From a virus (Duplodnaviria; Heunggongvirae; Uroviricota; Caudoviricetes): a stretch of 6,529 nt of DNA. The DNA lies in the IMG/VR virus record IMGVR_UViG_2690316200_000011, positions 1 through 6,529 of that record; one strand, given 5' to 3'. Below are positions 1 through 6,529 of this stretch, piece by piece (the stretch's first letter is position 1; every line of letters starts with the position of its first letter). The notes beneath the pieces were generated by a model, which made no database searches, was not told where the DNA came from, and was given only the letters and a program-made list of their open reading frames with translations. A program made the position numbers and the translations under genes.

Positions 1-47
1 AAAAAAAGAACAAATGGTAGTGTCCGCTATTGCCAGTACACCTCAGG
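1..47 (+). mobile_element. IS3-family insertion sequence, 3'-terminal segment of a second copy lying mostly upstream of the window
   Basis: Bases 1-47 are identical to 1925-1971, the segment that follows the orfB stop codon (1924-1926) of the in-window IS3-family element. Identity ends at 47/1971, where the flanks diverge (gtataag vs atagcgg). The element probably ends at the CA at 44-45 / 1968-1969. Confidence 0.6.
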
Positions 48-172
48 GTATAAGGGGTTATGGCCACCGGACTACCAAACGGCTGCCAGCCCTCTTTCAG
101 TTTATGTGTCAGCTTTTCCGCAAGATCTGACGGCGGCGCCGCCCTGACAACATCATAGTGTTTAAATGCCAT
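48..172 (-). pseudogene. Small hypothetical protein gene, C-terminus removed by the IS end; reads MAFKHYDVVRAAPPSDLAEKLTHKLKEGWQPFGSPVAITPY and then continues into IS sequence without a stop
   Basis: ATG at 170-172 on the minus strand, preceded by GGTGGAAAGAACC as a possible RBS. The translation has balanced, protein-like composition and sits in a GC-normal stretch. The open frame runs through the IS-derived bases 1-47. The EGWQPFG motif resembles small phage-associated proteins (DUF1737-like is a recollection, not verified). Confidence 0.4.
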
Positions 173-432
173 GGTTCTTTCCACCATCTGAAAAATAATT
201 CTTTAAAATACCTGACATGTAATACAGAAAAAACACAAAACCATACCTTAAATAAAAACCTGATTATCAAGCAGATATGCATGGATAAACTACAAGACGA
301 GATATAAACCACCCTGCATTTAAATAAACAATAAACAACATCAGAAAAATAATTCTGCTCTATGGTTTACATTCAAAAATATCATTTATACTTTTCAGAA
401 CATCACCAGCAAGGCATAAACAAGGAAACTAA

Positions 433-768
433 ATGAAGTGGATTGTGATTGATACAGTTATCCAGCCATCATGCGGAATATCTTTTTCAGTCATATGGAG
501 TAAAATAAAATTAATAATCTGGTATCAATCGGATGCTTTCTTACCTCCTGAAAGTATATTTACACTGACTCACACAGGCATCATGCTCAATAACAAAGTG
601 CTACCTGTAACCATTTACAACGTAGTACCATTCAATAAAACATTCTGGAATTCAATCAAAAATAGCCAGGAATGCCCTACAAATACAGATAACGTATTGA
701 ATGAATGCTTTAATAACCGTTGCACTCTGCAAATATGTCCTTATGGACTAAAACAACAAAGTCCATAA
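433..768 (+). CDS. Hypothetical protein, 111 aa, AT-rich orphan ORF
   Basis: ORF from the six-frame track. ATG at 433 is preceded by AAGGAAACTAA, a plausible Shine-Dalgarno with good spacing. The sequence is AT-rich and the protein is Cys/Trp/Asn-rich with no recognisable motif, so it may be non-coding. Confidence 0.25.
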
Positions 769-770
769 GG
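739..770. repeat. Perfect inverted repeat: 11-bp stem (ccttatggact / agtccataagg) with a 10-nt loop
   Basis: Read directly from the sequence. It overlaps the stop codon (766-768) of ORF 433-768. There is no T-run on either strand, so it is not a canonical intrinsic terminator. Confidence 0.5.
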
Positions 771-805
771 AGTTTACTCACATCTGACAAAATCAATATA
801 AACAG

Positions 806-819
806 CCCCTCCGGAGGGG
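806..819. repeat. Perfect 14-bp palindrome CCCCTCCGGAGGGG abutting the assembly gap; possible minus-strand terminator hairpin
   Basis: The sequence is its own reverse complement. On the minus strand it is followed by CTGTTTATATTG, which is T-rich. A related hairpin recurs at 2160-2177. Confidence 0.4.
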
Positions 820-831
820 NNNNNNNNNNNN
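820..831. other. Assembly gap (12 N) of unknown true length
   Basis: Run of n characters. The orfA reading frame is open right up to the gap, so the IS 5' end and the orfA N-terminus lie inside it. Confidence 0.95.
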
Positions 832-832
832 T

Positions 833-1072
833 GAAAATCAACTTTCGATCAGTGAAGGCGCTTCCCGATTATCTCTTCCTGAAGGCACTTTAGGACAATG
901 GGTTACCGCCGCCAGAAAAGGGCTCGGTACTCCTGGTTCCCGCACGGTGGCTGAACTGGAATCTGAAATTCTGCAACTGCGTAAGGCGTTAAATGAAGCT
1001 CGCCTTGAGCGAGATATATTAAAAAAAGCAACAGCGTATTTTGCACAGGAGTCGCTGAAAAATACGCGTTAA
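833..1072 (+). CDS. IS3-family transposase OrfA, partial (N-terminus in gap)
   Basis: The frame is open from the gap to TAA at 1070-1072. The translation ...EGASRLSLPEGTLGQWVTAARKG...ELESEILQLRKALNEARLERDILKKATAYFAQESLKNTR shows the HTH tail and heptad leucine zipper typical of IS3 OrfA proteins. Confidence 0.75.
   Translation, partial: ENQLSISEGASRLSLPEGTLGQWVTAARKGLGTPGSRTVAELESEILQLRKALNEARLERDILKKATAYFAQESLKNTR
1021..1027 (+). other. Programmed -1 ribosomal frameshift heptamer A_AAA_AAA (followed by G) joining orfA to orfB
   Basis: In the orfA frame the codons are TTA AAA AAA GCA. A -1 slip gives ...KKSNSVFCTGVAEKYALIEQWRQQFPIEAMCQVFG..., which is in frame with orfB. This matches the IS3-family OrfAB mechanism. 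Confidence 0.6.
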
Positions 1073-1107
1073 TCGAACAATGGCGACAACAATTTCCCAT
1101 TGAAGCG

Positions 1108-1926
1108 ATGTGTCAGGTATTTGGTGTATCCAGGAGCGGTTATTACAACTGGGTACAGCATGAACCCTCAGACAGAAAACAAAGTGATGAGCGGCTAAAA
1201 CTGGAGATTAAGGTGGCACATATCCGCACTCGCGAAACATATGGAACCCGGCGGCTCCAGACGGAGCTGGCAGAGAATGGCATCATCGTTGGTCGTGACC
1301 GACTGGCACGTCTTCGTAAGGAGCTAAGGCTACGCTGTAAGCAGAAACGCAAGTTCAGAGCGACTACGAACTCGAACCACAATCTGCCAGTTGCGCCAAA
1401 TCTGCTGAACCAGACGTTCGCTCCTACAGCACCAAATCAGGTCTGGGTGGCGGACCTGACGTATGTTGCCACACAGGAGGGATGGTTGTACCTCGCTGGC
1501 ATCAAAGATGTTTATACGTGCGAAATTGTCGGCTACGCCATGGGAGAGCGCATGACAAAAGAGCTGACAGGTAAAGCCCTGTTTATGGCGCTCAGGAGCC
1601 AGCGCCCACCTGCCGGGCTAATCCACCACTCTGATCGAGGTTCACAGTACTGCGCATACGATTACCGGGTCATACAGGAGCAGTCTGGTCTGAAAACATC
1701 AATGTCGCGTAAAGGTAACTGTTACGACAACGCTCCGATGGAAAGCTTCTGGGGAACGCTGAAAAATGAGAGCCTGAGCCACTATCGTTTTAATAACCGG
1801 GATGAAGCCATCTCAGTAATACGGGAATACATTGAGATTTTCTACAATCGTCAGCGTCGTCACTCTCGTCTGGGGAATATCTCCCCGGCAGCCTTCAGGG
1901 AAAAATATCATCAGATGGCTGCTTAA
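1108..1926 (+). CDS. IS3-family transposase OrfB (DDE/integrase catalytic domain); in vivo most likely made as an OrfAB transframe fusion
   Basis: 272-aa ORF. It begins MCQVFGVSRSGYYNW and carries the motifs HSDRGSQY...SMSRKGNCYDNAPMESFWGTLKNE...YNRQRRHSRLGNISP, which are characteristic of IS3-family OrfB. The frame is open upstream of the ATG back to the slippery site. Confidence 0.9.
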   Translation: MCQVFGVSRSGYYNWVQHEPSDRKQSDERLKLEIKVAHIRTRETYGTRRLQTELAENGIIVGRDRLARLRKELRLRCKQKRKFRATTNSNHNLPVAPNLLNQTFAPTAPNQVWVADLTYVATQEGWLYLAGIKDVYTCEIVGYAMGERMTKELTGKALFMALRSQRPPAGLIHHSDRGSQYCAYDYRVIQEQSGLKTSMSRKGNCYDNAPMESFWGTLKNESLSHYRFNNRDEAISVIREYIEIFYNRQRRHSRLGNISPAAFREKYHQMAA

Positions 1927-2150
1927 AAAAAGAACAAATGGTAGTGTCCGCTATTGCCAGTACACCTCAGGATAGCGGTCATGTGATGCCGGTTTCCCGG
2001 TAACTCAGCACCGGTATCTGAGTCAACGTTTTCTCTACTGGGTCATTTCCGATACGCCCTGCCTGCTGACAGGCTTTCATCACATCTGAAAATATAGCAC
2101 CCTGACTGATACTGTAGTACCTAAGGTTCCAGAAACTGTGATGTATCCGG

Positions 2151-2177
2151 CACAGAAAAGCCCCTCCGGAGAGGGCT
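2151..2177 (-). terminator. Putative rho-independent terminator (GC hairpin gcccctc-cgga-gagggc with a T-run on the minus strand)
   Basis: Bulged GC-rich hairpin at 2160-2176. The plus-strand agaaaag immediately 5' gives TTTTCT after the hairpin on the minus strand. Confidence 0.4.
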
Positions 2178-2569
2178 GGAGAGTGGCGCTATGTGCCATT
2201 GCATGATGCCGGGTGCCTCCCGGTGAATTCAGTACCAGCACCTGAATCCGCGATTATCCCATATACCTACTCGCTGATTGCCCCTCCGCACAGGGGGATT
2301 CACCATGCCAGTTTCTTTTAACAAACTCCCCGCAAACCAGACAACAGTCAACCGCCTGAATTGTGAAGTATTTAAAAATTTCTCCCGCTAACTGATACCC
2401 GGCTAACAGTCTGGCGTTTTCTTTTTCAGCAACGGGAAAGCAACAACCACCACACCCGCCACCAGCACACCGTCAGCCAGCACTGACATTATCCGGCTGC
2501 TGCAATGCCATTCACAAAAACAGTAAGCAATCACTTTTTACCGTAACAGGTGATAATCCAGATATGTAT

Positions 2570-2923
2570 CTACCCCAGATGAGTAATCCGAAGTTCATCC
2601 ATACCACAGGTCCTGGCTATTCTGTTGTACTCCTGAACAAGAGCAAATAATTCTGAATTAGCAACCATGAACTCATCGCAAACCCTCTGTATAGCATCAC
2701 TATTCAGAATAATAACGTCTCTTCCCGAAAGACGATCAGGAGTACAGAACAAAACTGTCAAACGGCTGAAGGCCTTTGCTCGTGCTGCATTGACTATATC
2801 AATACGCTGCCTAAGGATGAAACACCCCGACGCCTCATCAATATTCACTCTACCCACACCATATGAATGATAAATATTTAATGCTGAAAAAACCATTAGA
2901 CCGTATAACAAACACTCAATCAA
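2570..2923 (-). CDS. Hypothetical protein (cargo/moron candidate), 117 aa from a TTG start or 108 aa from the ATG at 2894-2896
   Basis: It is the longest ORF in a moderately AT-rich stretch, on the same strand as and directly downstream of the tRNA cluster. The translation is protein-like (…RVNIDEASGCFILRQRIDIVNAARAKAFSRL…ELFALVQEYNRIARTCGMDELRITHLG). There is no convincing RBS for either start and I recognise no family. Confidence 0.5.
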   Translation of the reverse strand: MIECLLYGLMVFSALNIYHSYGVGRVNIDEASGCFILRQRIDIVNAARAKAFSRLTVLFCTPDRLSGRDVIILNSDAIQRVCDEFMVANSELFALVQEYNRIARTCGMDELRITHLG

Positions 2924-3033
2924 TACTTAACAGAACTTTTATTTTTGACAAACATAAAATATTTTCAACAATATCCTGAGCCAGGTATATTTCAGTATAA
3001 GGCTCTGCCGGAAGGAATCTGGAAGAATGAATA

Positions 3034-3110
3034 TGGCGCGCTGTACTGGATTCGAACCAGTGACCGATTGCTTAGAAGGCAATTGCTCTGTCCGGCTGAG
3101 CTAACAACGC
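3034..3110 (-). tRNA. tRNA-Arg (anticodon UCU), phage-type argN-like
   Basis: The minus-strand RNA GCGTTGTTAGCTCAGCCGGACAGAGCAATTGCCTTCTAAGCAATCGGTCACTGGTTCGAATCCAGTACAGCGCGCCA folds as a 77-nt cloverleaf: 7-bp acceptor stem with one G-U pair, D-arm GCTC/GAGC, anticodon loop CTTCTAA, T-loop TTCGAAT, and an encoded CCA. Confidence 0.9.
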
Positions 3111-3123
3111 TGAATACCGATAA

Positions 3124-3203
3124 TGGACCGCCATCGGGGACCCGCCCCCGCACCAACAACCCTGTTATCGTGTCGTCTGCTCTTCCTGATAAGCTAATGG
3201 CGG
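3124..3203 (-). other. Degenerate tRNA-like relic (pseudo-tRNA)
   Basis: The minus-strand RNA is CCGCCAT-TA-GCTT...GAGC-...-CGGGG-GCGGGTC-CCCCG-ATGGCGG-T-CCA. The acceptor stem is perfectly complementary and a D-arm, a T-stem and a 3' CCA are present. No canonical anticodon hairpin can be formed and the T-loop is non-canonical. Confidence 0.3.
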
Positions 3204-3210
3204 TTTGTGA

Positions 3211-3286
3211 TGGTGGCCCTTGCTGGATTTGAACCAGCGACCTGGCGATTATGAGTCGCTCGCTCTCACCACTGAGCTAAAGGGCC
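3211..3286 (-). tRNA. tRNA-Ile2 (anticodon CAU, lysidine-type; ileX/ileZ-like), copy 1
   Basis: The minus-strand RNA GGCCCTTTAGCTCAGTGGTGAGAGCGAGCGACTCATAATCGCCAGGTCGCTGGTTCAAATCCAGCAAGGGCCACCA is a 76-nt cloverleaf with anticodon loop CTCATAA. It is very close to the remembered E. coli tRNA-Ile2 (ileX) sequence, which argues for Ile2 rather than Met. Confidence 0.85.
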
Positions 3287-3321
3287 GGGAGCAGAATAAT
3301 AACGGTCCGTAATTAATTCCN

Positions 3322-3346
3322 CCCATAAGCGCTAACTTAAGGGTTG
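3322..3346. repeat. IS186 left terminal inverted repeat
   Basis: 25-bp perfect inverted match with 4640-4664. Position 3321 is an ambiguous n. Confidence 0.8.
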
Positions 3347-3378
3347 TGGTATTACGCCTGATATGATTTAACGTGCCG

Positions 3379-4491
3379 ATGAATTACTCTCACGATAACT
3401 GGTCAGCAATTCTGGCCCATATTGGTAAGCCCGAAGAACTGGATACTTCGGCACGTAATGCCGGGGCTCTAACCCGCCGCCGCGAAATTCGTGATGCTGC
3501 AACTCTGCTACGTCTGGGGCTGGCTTACGGCCCCGGGGGGATGTCATTACGTGAAGTCACTGCATGGGCTCAGCTCCATGACGTTGCAACATTATCTGAC
3601 GTGGCTCTCCTGAAGCGGCTGCGGAATGCCGCCGACTGGTTTGGCATACTTGCCGCACAAACACTTGCTGTACGCGCCGCAGTTACGGGTTGTACAAGCG
3701 GAAAGAGATTGCGTCTTGTCGATGGAACAGCAATCAGTGCGCCCGGGGGCGGCAGCGCTGAATGGCGACTACATATGGGATATGATCCTCATACCTGTCA
3801 GTTCACTGATTTTGAGCTAACCGACAGCAGAGACGCTGAACGGCTGGACCGATTTGCGCAAACGGCAGACGAGATACGCATTGCTGACCGGGGATTCGGT
3901 TCGCGTCCCGAATGTATCCGCTCACTTGCTTTTGGAGAAGCTGATTATATCGTCCGGGTTCACTGGCGAGGATTGCGCTGGTTAACTGCAGAAGGAATGC
4001 GCTTTGACATGATGGGTTTTCTGCGCGGGCTGGATTGCGGTAAGAACGGTGAAACCACTGTAATGATAGGCAATTCAGGTAATAAAAAAGCCGGAGCTCC
4101 CTTTCCGGCACGTCTCATTGCCGTATCACTTCCTCCCGAAAAAGCATTAATCAGTAAAACCCGACTGCTCAGCGAGAATCGTCGAAAAGGACGAGTAGTT
4201 CAGGCGGAAACGCTGGAAGCAGCGGGCCATGTGCTATTGCTAACATCATTACCGGAAGATGAATATTCAGCAGAGCAAGTGGCTGACTGTTACCGTCTGC
4301 GATGGCAAATTGAACTGGCTTTTAAGCGGCTCAAAAGTTTGCTGCACCTGGATGCTTTGCGTGCAAAGGAACCTGAACTCGCGAAAGCGTGGATATTTGC
4401 TAATCTACTCGCCGCATTTTTAATTGACGACATAATCCAGCCATCGCTGGATTTCCCCCCCAGAAGTGCCGGATCCGAAAAGAAGAACTAA
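3379..4491 (+). CDS. insL: IS186 transposase InsL (IS4-family DDE transposase)
   Basis: The ORF track starts at GTG 3373; the ATG at 3379 gives the 370-aa product MNYSHDNW.... The C-terminal YRLRWQIELAFKRLKS is the Y-R-E signature typical of IS4-family transposases. The ORF is bounded by the inverted repeats. Confidence 0.88.
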   Translation: MNYSHDNWSAILAHIGKPEELDTSARNAGALTRRREIRDAATLLRLGLAYGPGGMSLREVTAWAQLHDVATLSDVALLKRLRNAADWFGILAAQTLAVRAAVTGCTSGKRLRLVDGTAISAPGGGSAEWRLHMGYDPHTCQFTDFELTDSRDAERLDRFAQTADEIRIADRGFGSRPECIRSLAFGEADYIVRVHWRGLRWLTAEGMRFDMMGFLRGLDCGKNGETTVMIGNSGNKKAGAPFPARLIAVSLPPEKALISKTRLLSENRRKGRVVQAETLEAAGHVLLLTSLPEDEYSAEQVADCYRLRWQIELAFKRLKSLLHLDALRAKEPELAKAWIFANLLAAFLIDDIIQPSLDFPPRSAGSEKKN

Positions 4492-4639
4492 CTCGTTGTG
4501 GAGAATAACAAAAATGGTCATCTGGAGCTTACAGGTGGCCATTCGTGGGACAGTATCCCTGACAGCCTACAAAACGCAATTGAAGAACGCGAGGCATCGT
4601 CTTAACGAGGCACCGAGGCGTCGCATTCTTCAGATGGTT

Positions 4640-4664
4640 CAACCCTTAAGTTAGCGCTTATGGG
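4640..4664. repeat. IS186 right terminal inverted repeat
   Basis: Reverse complement of 3322-3346. Confidence 0.8.
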
Positions 4665-4725
4665 ACTTGAACCCCGCGCAGCCAGCTTCGAAGGCTGGCG
4701 CTCTTTCCTGATGAGCTAATGGCGG
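4665..4725 (-). pseudogene. Truncated tRNA-Arg(UCG)-like gene: 5' part retained, 3' T-stem/acceptor strand replaced by IS186
   Basis: The minus-strand RNA is CCGCCAT-TA-GCTC-ATCAGGAAA-GAGC-G-CCAGC-CTTCGAA-GCTGG-CTGCG-CGGGG-TTCAAGT-CCC followed by the IS186 IR. The D-arm, anticodon arm (anticodon TCG) and T-stem/T-loop are canonical; the 3' acceptor strand and CCA are missing. The acceptor 5' strand starting with C is unusual, so the assignment is tentative. Confidence 0.45.
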
Positions 4726-4732
4726 TATGTGA

Positions 4733-4808
4733 TGGTGGCCCTTGCTGGATTTGAACCAGCGACCTGGCGATTATGAGTCGCTCGCTCTCACCACTGAGCT
4801 AAAGGGCC
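4733..4808 (-). tRNA. tRNA-Ile2 (anticodon CAU), copy 2, identical to copy 1
   Basis: 76 nt identical to 3211-3286. The flanks are similar but not identical (several mismatches in the 5' and 3' flanking 30-40 bp). Confidence 0.85.
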
Positions 4809-4848
4809 GGGAGCCGCATAATAACGACGCGTAATTAATTCTTCAATA

Positions 4849-5907
4849 TCATCCGTTCTGGCTGACTAAATCCTGTACTTCCCGAACCGTCTGCTCAAAA
4901 CGTTCAGTCTCCAGCTCAACGCCAATTGCACGACGCCCGAGCGCCAGTGCCGCTTTCACTGTCGAACCCAACCCCATGAAAAAATCTGCAATCAGGTCAC
5001 CCGGACGACTGCTAGCGCTGATTATCTGCTGCAGCATTTCTGCCGGTTTTTCGCACGGATGTTTCCCGGGATAGAACTGCACCGGTTTATGCGTCCACAC
5101 ATCGGTATACGGCACCTGCACCGTCACGCCAAAATACCGCCGCAGATGTTTATATTCACTCAGCAGCTCCGCATACTGCCGGTTCAGTGAGGTATACGTA
5201 TCCACCAGCTGGTGGTGGAGCTTTTCCAGTTCACCACGCCGATGCTTCTCTTCTGCCACCCGGGCAAACAGCGCCTGTAATTTCAGATAATCGCTTTCAT
5301 TCGGCAACTGCCACTGACCGGCACTGAACCAGTGCGACACCATGTTTTTCTTTCCTGTGGCATCTGCAATCTGTTTTGCCGTTATCCCCAGGGCAGCTCG
5401 CGCATCACGAAAGTAAGAAATCAGCGGGGCCATCACATGCTGTTTCAGTGCACTGCCCTTCGCCGCATACCCGGCATCTTTCGGACGATACGGCCCCTGA
5501 TAATGTTCCGCGAACAGAATGCGCTCTGTGGCGGGGAAATACGCCCGCAGGCTTTCCTTGTTGCATCCGTTCCAGCGTCCGGACGGCTTCGCCCAGATAA
5601 TATGGTTCAGCACACTGAAGCGTTCACGCATCATGATTTCGATATCAGATGCCAGGCGATGACCACAGAACAGGTAAAGACTTCCGGCAGGTTTCAGCAC
5701 CCGCCAGAACTGCGCCAGACACTGGTCCAGCCACTTCAGGTAATCATCGTCGCCCTTCCACTGGTTATCCCAGCCCTCAGGCTTCACTTTAAAGTACGGC
5801 GGGTCCGTGACTATCAGGTCAACAGAATTTTCGGGTAACGACCGGATAAATTCCAGGCAGTCGGCGTTGATTAACTCACAACTGGATATTTTTACAGTAT
5901 TAAGCAT
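4849..5907 (-). CDS. DNA N6-adenine methyltransferase, beta-class (YhdJ-like / N6_N4_Mtase family), orphan
   Basis: 352-aa ORF with motif IV near the N-terminus (SVDLIVTDPPY) and motif I near the C-terminus (GDLIADFFMGLGST), preceded by HPCEKP. This order defines beta-class amino-MTases and the layout parallels E. coli YhdJ as I remember it. No restriction endonuclease gene is adjacent. Confidence 0.9.
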   Translation of the reverse strand: MLNTVKISSCELINADCLEFIRSLPENSVDLIVTDPPYFKVKPEGWDNQWKGDDDYLKWLDQCLAQFWRVLKPAGSLYLFCGHRLASDIEIMMRERFSVLNHIIWAKPSGRWNGCNKESLRAYFPATERILFAEHYQGPYRPKDAGYAAKGSALKQHVMAPLISYFRDARAALGITAKQIADATGKKNMVSHWFSAGQWQLPNESDYLKLQALFARVAEEKHRRGELEKLHHQLVDTYTSLNRQYAELLSEYKHLRRYFGVTVQVPYTDVWTHKPVQFYPGKHPCEKPAEMLQQIISASSRPGDLIADFFMGLGSTVKAALALGRRAIGVELETERFEQTVREVQDLVSQNG

Positions 5908-6000
5908 GGATCATTAAGCCTGTCTCTGATAGGCTCATTCTGCTTTTGCGCAAAGCAGTGGGCCTGAGGTTTGCTTGTGAACCCAACGCATGAGCAGATG

Positions 6001-6029
6001 GCTGGTGGGTGCCCCTAACACCCACCAGC
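6001..6029. repeat. Perfect 11-bp-stem hairpin (gctggtgggtg / cacccaccagc, 7-nt loop) in the methyltransferase leader
   Basis: Read directly from the sequence. It lies between the terminator at 6045-6071 and the methyltransferase start, along with two further hairpins at 5917-5935 and 5940-5958. Confidence 0.5.
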
Positions 6030-6044
6030 CGCCCATTTACCACA

Positions 6045-6071
6045 AATAAAAAAGCCTTCACTGCGGAAGGC
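6045..6071 (-). terminator. Rho-independent terminator (stem gccttc/gaaggc, loop actgcg, then TTTTTTATT on the minus strand)
   Basis: The minus strand reads GCCTTCCGCAGTGAAGGC followed by TTTTTTATTTG. The hairpin overlaps the stop codon of ORF 6058-6255. Confidence 0.6.
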
Positions 6072-6255
6072 GTCTGTAACAACCGAACTGATAGTCTGCC
6101 AGACCCGCCATAACCAGCTGGGTCAGTATTAACTGGCAGCGTTCGCGTGAAAGGTAAGTATTCTGCGCTATCTCCCCGACTGTCGCCGGTTCGGTAACGC
6201 TTAATTCATTAAACACCACTCTGGCGGTTTCTGTCATATCCTGCTGTTTTAGCAT
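6058..6255 (-). CDS. Small hypothetical protein, 65 aa, possible winged-helix DNA-binding protein (PapI/FaeA-like pattern)
   Basis: The ATG is preceded by AAGGAAAAGAC, a strong Shine-Dalgarno. The translation MLKQQDMTETARVVFNELSVTEPATVGEIAQNTYLSRERCQLILTQLVMAGLADYQ resembles small winged-helix regulators by pattern only. The gene is bracketed by terminators at 6376-6398 and 6045-6071. Confidence 0.45.
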   Translation of the reverse strand: MLKQQDMTETARVVFNELSVTEPATVGEIAQNTYLSRERCQLILTQLVMAGLADYQFGCYRRLPQ

Positions 6256-6375
6256 GTCTTTTCCTTTTCCGGTTAACGTGACACACCAATAACTCTTGTC
6301 GAAAAAGCCAGCAAGCTGAAAGACAGGTATTCACCGCCACCAGCGCGTTTACTGTACTGACGCGATTTCAGTCAT

Positions 6376-6398
6376 AAAAAACCCGCTCGGCGGCGGGT
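6376..6398 (-). terminator. Rho-independent terminator (stem cccgc/gcggg with a T6 run on the minus strand)
   Basis: The minus strand reads AACCCGCCGCCGAGCGGGTTTTTTATGA. It lies roughly 85-100 bp downstream of a minus-strand reading frame that enters from beyond the window end (stop near 6482 or 6497, depending on frame). Confidence 0.6.
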
Positions 6399-6529
6399 TG
6401 TAGAAACTCTTCTAACGTCAGGCATAAAACGCCCATCGTTATGACGAATTTACCACAGATTCCGGAAAAATCAACCTTGTTACCTAGTTACCTTTTTTAA
6501 CTGCCGCTCAGCCCATGCTTCTTCAATAT

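Follow-up and report, generated by a model that had tools for sequence, protein, structure and literature searches.

An IS186 copy with mismatched flanks in a Shigella sonnei-type prophage record: an ordinary insertion into argN, probably next to a scaffold join

Background

Insertions of the insertion sequence (IS) IS186 are almost confined to 5'-GGGG(N6/N7)CCCC-3' (Lee et al. 2016, PMC5009759). The GGGG/CCCC palindrome was perfect in 52 of 59 reconstructed sites, the other seven being off by one or two bases, and the same study counted 98 recombination events between IS copies in E. coli mutation-accumulation lines (PMC5009759). Here we describe an IS186 copy in the tRNA cluster of a tailed virus record (IMG/VR IMGVR_UViG_2690316200_000011, Caudoviricetes), of which positions 1 to 6,529 were analysed; this whole stretch of 6,529 nucleotides is called the window. 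The phage genes are transcribed from the minus strand; gene orders are given from right to left of the window.

Among the closest described systems are the tRNA clusters of Shiga toxin (Stx) phages and other lambdoid phages of the 933W type, in Stx phages with the order methylase-ileZ-argN-argO-stx2A. The window shares this order without stx, and its cluster is about 90% identical to that of Stx2 phages. A prophage of S. sonnei, termed P_B here, has ileZ, argN and argO all intact. The window, however, contains two ileZ genes, one argO, one argN fragment and one argN relic, a combination that occurred at one locus in none of the finished genomes examined. A first-pass annotation, made from the sequence alone, had described this arrangement as a chimeric junction left by recombination. 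We confirm the observation; the reading as a recombination scar is only partly supported, and the chimeric junction is probably not biology. It appears likely that three contigs from a collapsed repeat shared by two prophages (P_B and a second one, P_A) were scaffolded together, so that the joins would be products of the assembly. Each segment could be traced to its origin, the right IS186 junction is genuine, and both non-homologous joins coincide with ambiguous bases and repeat boundaries.

The IS186 copy and its two flanks

The features around the element are as follows.

3183-3319, minus strand: ileZ block copy 1, P_A type, with the methylase-less kind of spacer (tRNA at 3211-3286)
3321: ambiguous base n, exactly where P_A homology ends
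3324-4662, plus strand: IS186/IS421, 1339 bp if read CATAAG...CTTATG, with the transposase gene at 3379-4491
4662-4725, minus strand: 5' 64 nt of argN, tRNA-Arg(TCG), P_B copy, cut in the T-arm (partial Rfam match)
4705-4841, minus strand: ileZ block copy 2, P_B type (tRNA at 4733-4808), 100% identical to the S. sonnei P_B locus L007

The element has perfect inverted repeats of 25 nt (3322-3346 and 4640-4664), in line with the flawless repeats of about 23 bp (CATAAGCGCTAACTTAAGGGTTG) at the termini that mark IS186/IS421 (IS4 family). It encodes a single DDE transposase (Pfam DDE_Tnp_1, E = 1.6e-26) of 370 amino acids; four E. coli IS186/IS421 copies encode the identical protein, which is annotated as WP_001300563.1 in E. 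coli IS421 copies. Identity to the E. coli copies is 99.9%; the sole difference over 1337 bp is a synonymous C at 4287, which is T in the same four copies.

Outside ATAAGC...GCTTAT, the 13 nt on the left side are attaattccnccc and those on the right side gggacttgaaccc. The two flanks agree at 6 of the 12 readable positions, three of which belong to the generic ccc. A simple insertion whose target-site duplication is masked by the n was considered and rejected, as no base at 3321 rescues a duplication; the absence of such a duplication had been claimed before, and the claim holds. A target duplication at GGGG(N6/N7)CCCC was not found for the IS186 of the window, only its right flank fitting the motif: here acttgaa-cccc corresponds to the right-hand half of an N7 site, whereas the left flank is AT-rich (ttaattaattcc) and lacks GGGG plus core. 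The argN T-arm itself (window plus strand, GGGGACTTGAACCCC) is a perfect N7 IS186 site, and the left flank to be expected of an insertion there, ...tggaccgccatcggggacttgaaccc followed by ATAAGC, is not present in the window. As the right junction is seamless, has a flank of S. sonnei type and lies exactly at the canonical target, we take the insertion as real: at the right junction, IS186 has genuinely inserted into the argN T-arm of P_B. That the right IS end lies inside a different tRNA had been recognised correctly, the gene being cut after its 5' 64 nt.

The bases cncc at the left end, previously held to be of unclear origin, can be accounted for. The c at 3322 matches the next base of P_A and likewise the last base of the expected argN duplication, and the cc at 3323-3324 corresponds to the G/C bases that flank every IS186 copy examined. 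Whether the ccc beside the left inverted repeat could belong to IS186 itself (with a duplication confined to the 6-7 nt core, following the wording of Lee et al.) was considered and rejected for the outermost base. In the copy of E. coli DLI.5a (L002) the corresponding bases are gcc, derived from the target; the two inner c's are ambiguous between IS and target.

Comparison copies of IS186 were located in the following genomes.

E. coli Z1323PEC0012 (L005, 1743-1755): in argN, at the same position as in the window, with a clean 13-bp duplication gggacttgaaccc
TUM9803 (L006, 1743-1755): at the equivalent site in another argN allele, with the duplication gggactcgaaccc
14EC017 (L001, 4136-4148) and TUM2805 (L003, 4069-4080): in the relic allele, with the duplication gggacccgcccc
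DLI.5a (L002): inside the methylase gene, at ggggaaatacgccc, with the duplication gggaaatacgcc

All comparison copies (L001, L002, L003, L005 and L006) thus have target duplications. The E. coli IS186/IS421 copies in this tRNA T-arm show clean ones in four allelic contexts, whereas the copy in the window has none and a left flank unlike a target. In the prophage of DLI.5a, IS186 occupies 4998-6340 and ggggaaatacgccc is an imperfect target; the insertion site corresponds to about 5534-5545 of the window and is intact there. Counting E. coli and the S. sonnei-like window (4662-4675) together, IS186 sits in the argN T-arm of prophages, relic included, in no fewer than four allelic contexts. Each such insertion destroys a rare-codon tRNA-Arg; the relic site of the window (3136-3149) is still empty.

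Two prophage loci of Shigella sonnei as sources of the window

Exact-protein look-ups were made with the methylase and with an IraM-like protein encoded in the window (24 assembly blocks each; 37 and 33 contigs read). Both proteins occur without any difference in thousands of assemblies, including finished S. sonnei genomes such as 53G (HE616528.1) and CP104423.1. They led to two loci lying about 670 kb apart in finished S. sonnei genomes. P_B, at 1.86 Mb in CP104423.1, has the order Q_B-orf65-methylase-ileZ-argN-argO-...-IS600. P_A, at 2.53 Mb and in the same orientation, reads Q_A-ileZ-argN relic-argO-...-IraM-DUF1737 fragment-IS600 and has no methylase. The window matches them piece by piece.

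1-819: P_A (L017, 5569-6387), 99.9% identical
832-2378: P_B (L007, 6930-5385), 99.5%
2156-3320: P_A (L017, 6369-7534), 99.7%
4662-6529: P_B, 100%

Only 820-831 and 3321-4661 lack S. sonnei coverage at 99% or more. From these piecewise matches it follows that the window is an A-B-A-(IS186)-B interleaving of two loci about 670 kb apart. Several stretches are near-identical in P_A and P_B: a segment termed S1 (about 2159-2378), argO, the ileZ block, and a block downstream of the antiterminator Q gene (post-Q block). The last of these lies at 6374-6529 of the window as the P_B allele; its P_A copy is 94% identical and follows directly after the P_A ileZ spacer.

The sequence to the left of IS186 is probably a contig of P_A, the second prophage of the same genome, misplaced during assembly or scaffolding. 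In S. sonnei, P_A continues after the base at 3320 with gcaataaaaaacccgctcgg... into the Q_A antiterminator gene, and its spacer is uninterrupted in all finished genomes read (uninterrupted form TAATTAATTCCGCAATAAAAAACCCGC; P_A-specific part agaataataacggtccgtaattaattcc; continuation side aataaaaaaccc). About 140 bp of P_B that would be expected to the left of IS186, i.e. the 3' end of argN plus argO, are missing from the window. In finished S. sonnei genomes neither argN nor argO of P_B is interrupted, and IS186 was found at neither the P_A nor the P_B locus in the contigs read, finished S. sonnei chromosomes included. The comparison with related prophages that had been recommended earlier delivered these two loci, without IS186 in either of them.

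Switches between the loci and the ambiguous bases

The window changes from one source to another at three points before the right IS186 junction. The switch from P_B to P_A falls within 2207-2336, where the two prophages do not differ, and would result from a real crossover as well as from a wrong branch taken by the assembler. The switch from P_A to IS600 at 819/832 is non-homologous and bears a run of twelve N (N12), IS600 being entered at about its position 128. Here the first P_A piece stops 13-16 bp past the point where P_A and P_B converge at S1, at the hairpin agcccctccggagaggg. Relative to the ten finished S. sonnei P_A loci, the window has a single private base, 817, which is non-coding and lies two bases ahead of the N run, as a ragged end of a contig would lead one to expect.

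The switch from P_A to IS186 at 3320/3322, also non-homologous, bears the single n; the left junction as written reads TAATTAATTCC[N]CCCATAAGCGCTAAC. The second P_A piece has aattcc as its last bases. P_A itself has just gca between this point and ataaaaaacccgctcgg..., a block also found at window position 6374, which places the end of this piece 1-3 bp ahead of a repeat boundary (the post-Q block). Where the window has the n, P_A reads g and then c. As had been stated, the copy-1 spacer ceases to be homologous to copy 2 at gtaattaattc.

Ambiguous bases occupy 13 of the 6,529 positions, in two blocks that are confined to the two non-homologous P_A/P_B joins. That such blocks lie on just these two breakpoints is not chance, and the record itself thereby marks the joins as unresolved; the earlier caution about the n and the assembly was well placed. 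Two features expected of a scaffold join are present, namely ambiguous bases at the joins and P_A pieces ending within 16 bp and 3 bp of repeat boundaries.

The left IS186 junction was found in none of 5,426 complete E. coli genomes (0/5,426), and the same holds for the N12 join (0/5,426). Exact scans of GTDB representative genomes, IMG/VR and JGI metagenomes for both IS186 junctions (with N as a wildcard on the left) gave no match, and the phage collection contained no record with the structure of the window.

A probable scaffold misjoin and its alternatives

IS186 inserted into the argN T-arm of a P_B of S. sonnei type (methylase-ileZ-argN-argO), giving rise to the right junction. According to our proposal, a short-read assembly would then collapse S1, argO, the ileZ block and the post-Q block into a repeat graph with two ways in and two ways out. 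The branches may then have been laid in line: the left part of P_A, N12; the left part of P_B plus S1 plus the right part of P_A, n; IS186 plus the right part of P_B. The N characters would be placeholders between these three contigs. On the true path of P_B from S1 to IS186, unique pieces of 13-33 bp would lie between shared ones and would have been lost. The true left flank of the element would comprise about 140 bp, made up of the argN 3' end (...tcggggacttgaaccc) and then argO, and the expected left junction would read GGGGACTTGAACCCATAAGCGC (in its longer form GGGGACTTGAACCCATAAGCGCTAAC).

Scaffold misjoins in draft assemblies typically show N at the joins, ends at repeat boundaries, the branches of a repeat in series and the loss of a short segment flanked by repeats, and the window has all of these. 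It differs from them in crossing one repeat (S1) and one IS boundary without N. Some scaffolders place a single n where a predicted overlap of contigs is not found. Several points weigh against a misjoin. The single n may be a mere low-quality base call, and both the right IS186 junction and the switch in S1 are free of N, so that one repeat or more was passed without leaving a gap. IS-driven rearrangement is a known trait of S. sonnei genomes, and lambdoid prophages are prone to recombination. The copy number of IS186 in the source genome also bears on why a contig should end precisely where the element begins on the left.

If the structure is taken as real, then in one S. sonnei-like strain a DNA end at the left terminus of IS186, residing in argN of P_B, would have been fused by illegitimate joining to the P_A ileZ spacer at its end, and a homologous exchange in S1 would have completed a hybrid prophage with two ileZ genes. 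The given sequence does read this way, the switch from P_B to P_A in a 130-bp identical stretch looks like a real crossover, and the IS join has just one ambiguous base. We nevertheless regard this as unlikely, as at least three events are needed, two of them non-homologous, and it is exactly those that bear N at repeat boundaries. Moreover, P_A and P_B form direct repeats separated by about 670 kb, between which simple recombination deletes or duplicates but does not interleave, and the junction is present in no finished genome examined. Homologous recombination of an IS186 copy in argN of P_B with another beside ileZ of P_A, exchanging their flanks, would explain flanks from different loci without a duplication, the classic sign of such an event, and these events are frequent in E. 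coli as noted above (PMC5009759). The window resembles such an exchange in both respects, but one of its flanks is not a credible site for an element as site-specific as IS186. The left flank would have to be a real half-site, whereas the corresponding bases are AT-rich and none fit GGGG/CCCC; the P_A spacer continues with gcaat..., so that even the cc beside the IS is not P_A sequence, and no finished P_A locus carries IS186. We therefore hold a scar of recombination between IS186 copies, as proposed by the first-pass annotation, to be very improbable.

As to the other possibility raised there, recombination between two related tRNA loci, the flanks do derive from P_A (99.7%) and P_B (100%), but a crossover should fall within the sequence they share, and the join lies outside it. 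This also bears on a variant in which unequal crossing-over of the prophage tRNA clusters first created a tandem of ileZ genes and IS186 inserted between them afterwards. With about 90 bp of identity, the two ileZ genes could serve as a substrate for recombination. The novel join, however, is outside the shared sequence, and a later insertion would leave a duplication and the argN 3' end on the left; both are absent, whatever base the n stands for, which makes this scenario hardly credible. The misjoin around an ordinary insertion is the most economical reading and the one that we favour.

tRNA genes of the window

A repeat search returned a single direct repeat of 137 nt (3183-3319 and 4705-4841) with 95% identity. 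This is the tRNA-Ile2 block already seen on both sides of IS186, the second copy having been placed at 4699-4838, a few bases off. In a base-by-base alignment the tRNA sequence is identical throughout and all differences fall in the flanks, which bears out the view that the duplication is not recent. ARAGORN predicted three minus-strand genes, tRNA(CAT) at 3211-3286 and 4733-4808 and tRNA-Arg(TCT) at 3034-3110; against the Rfam tRNA model each ileZ copy scores 72.5 bits and argO 68 bits. Both ileZ copies have a full tRNA fold and a CAT anticodon, and their homologues are labelled tRNA-Ile or ileZ in RefSeq and phage records. The modification of C34 to lysidine, which leads to decoding of AUA, is a biochemical trait of tRNA-Ile2. 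The ileZ spacer of copy 1 matches that of L003, a locus with the methylase-less order Q-ileZ.

To the right of IS186 there is a partial Rfam tRNA match (31 bits, model positions 7-64); the intact argN lies at 5183-5259 in the S. sonnei locus L007. By anticodon and by the annotation of Stx phages, this right fragment belongs to argN, whereas the complete tRNA-Arg gene to the left of copy 1 is argO, so that the two tRNA-Arg labels had been swapped. The argN relic of P_A (about 3124-3203) gave no match with ARAGORN or Rfam; a motif search located in it an empty IS186 target, GGGGACCCGCCCCC, at 3136-3149.

Position 3242, inside the tRNA of ileZ copy 1, is T in four of the ten S. sonnei P_A loci and C in the other six and in the window, where the C makes copy 1 identical to copy 2. 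This variation is either a polymorphism or gene conversion between the ileZ genes of both prophages within S. sonnei.

Further features of the window

The remaining features, from left to right, are the following.

1-45, plus strand: right end of IS600, adjoining P_A sequence as in S. sonnei
46-819: P_A segment 1 with a truncated DUF1737 gene and an IraM/PmrD-like gene (433-768)
820-831: run of N12, where P_A is joined non-homologously to the interior of IS600
832-1969, plus strand: IS600, 5'-truncated, about 127 bp of its left end missing ("IS3-like element IS600 family transposase", 99.9%)
1970-2336: P_B-specific sequence, then the shared stretch S1 (three-way alignment and table of single-nucleotide differences)
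2337-3320: P_A segment 2, with no stx gene downstream of argO
3034-3110, minus strand: argO, tRNA-Arg(TCT), P_A copy (ARAGORN; Rfam 68 bits)
about 3124-3203, minus strand: argN relic of P_A, unrecognised by ARAGORN and Rfam
4849-5907, minus strand: N6/N4 DNA methyltransferase of P_B, 352 amino acids (Pfam PF01555, E = 8e-42)
6374-6529: block downstream of the antiterminator Q gene, P_B allele

An exact repeat of 47 bp (1-47 and 1925-1971) comprises the right end of IS600 and two flanking bases, from which we conclude that the window begins within another IS600 copy, like P_A in S. sonnei. The right end of the longer IS600 (832-1969) adjoins P_B sequence exactly as in finished S. sonnei P_B. 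An open reading frame (ORF) of 65 amino acids lies between the methyltransferase gene and the post-Q block, and at the right end of the window Q_A and Q_B are only 94% identical.

The prophage-borne ORF at 433-768 (111 amino acids) is identical in about 4,000 assemblies. Its RefSeq homologues in E. coli are annotated as "anti-adapter protein IraM", and precomputed hits assign it to the PmrD family; our own Pfam scan gave no match at E <= 0.01. About 650 bp (2379-3033) are specific to P_A and occupy the slot after argO where Stx phages carry stx, and P_B is entirely devoid of them. No domain was recognisable in this stretch, and its ORF at 2570-2923 (minus strand, 117 amino acids) has no Pfam match.

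Implications

An IS with mismatched flanks beside an N, in genomes as rich in IS elements and prophages as those of Shigella, should first be suspected of being an assembly join, not a recombination scar. Were the left terminus of IS186 really joined, without homology, to the spacer of a prophage 670 kb away, which we think quite unlikely, the result would be a hybrid late region in which the gene for the rare-codon tRNA-Ile2 is duplicated, and a one-ended, IS186-driven rearrangement of a type not described for such a cut-and-paste element. The underlying biology is ordinary: the T-arm of the phage argN is a perfect IS186 target that has been hit repeatedly in independent prophage lineages, because it conforms to the published target motif of the element, and each time a rare-codon tRNA is inactivated.

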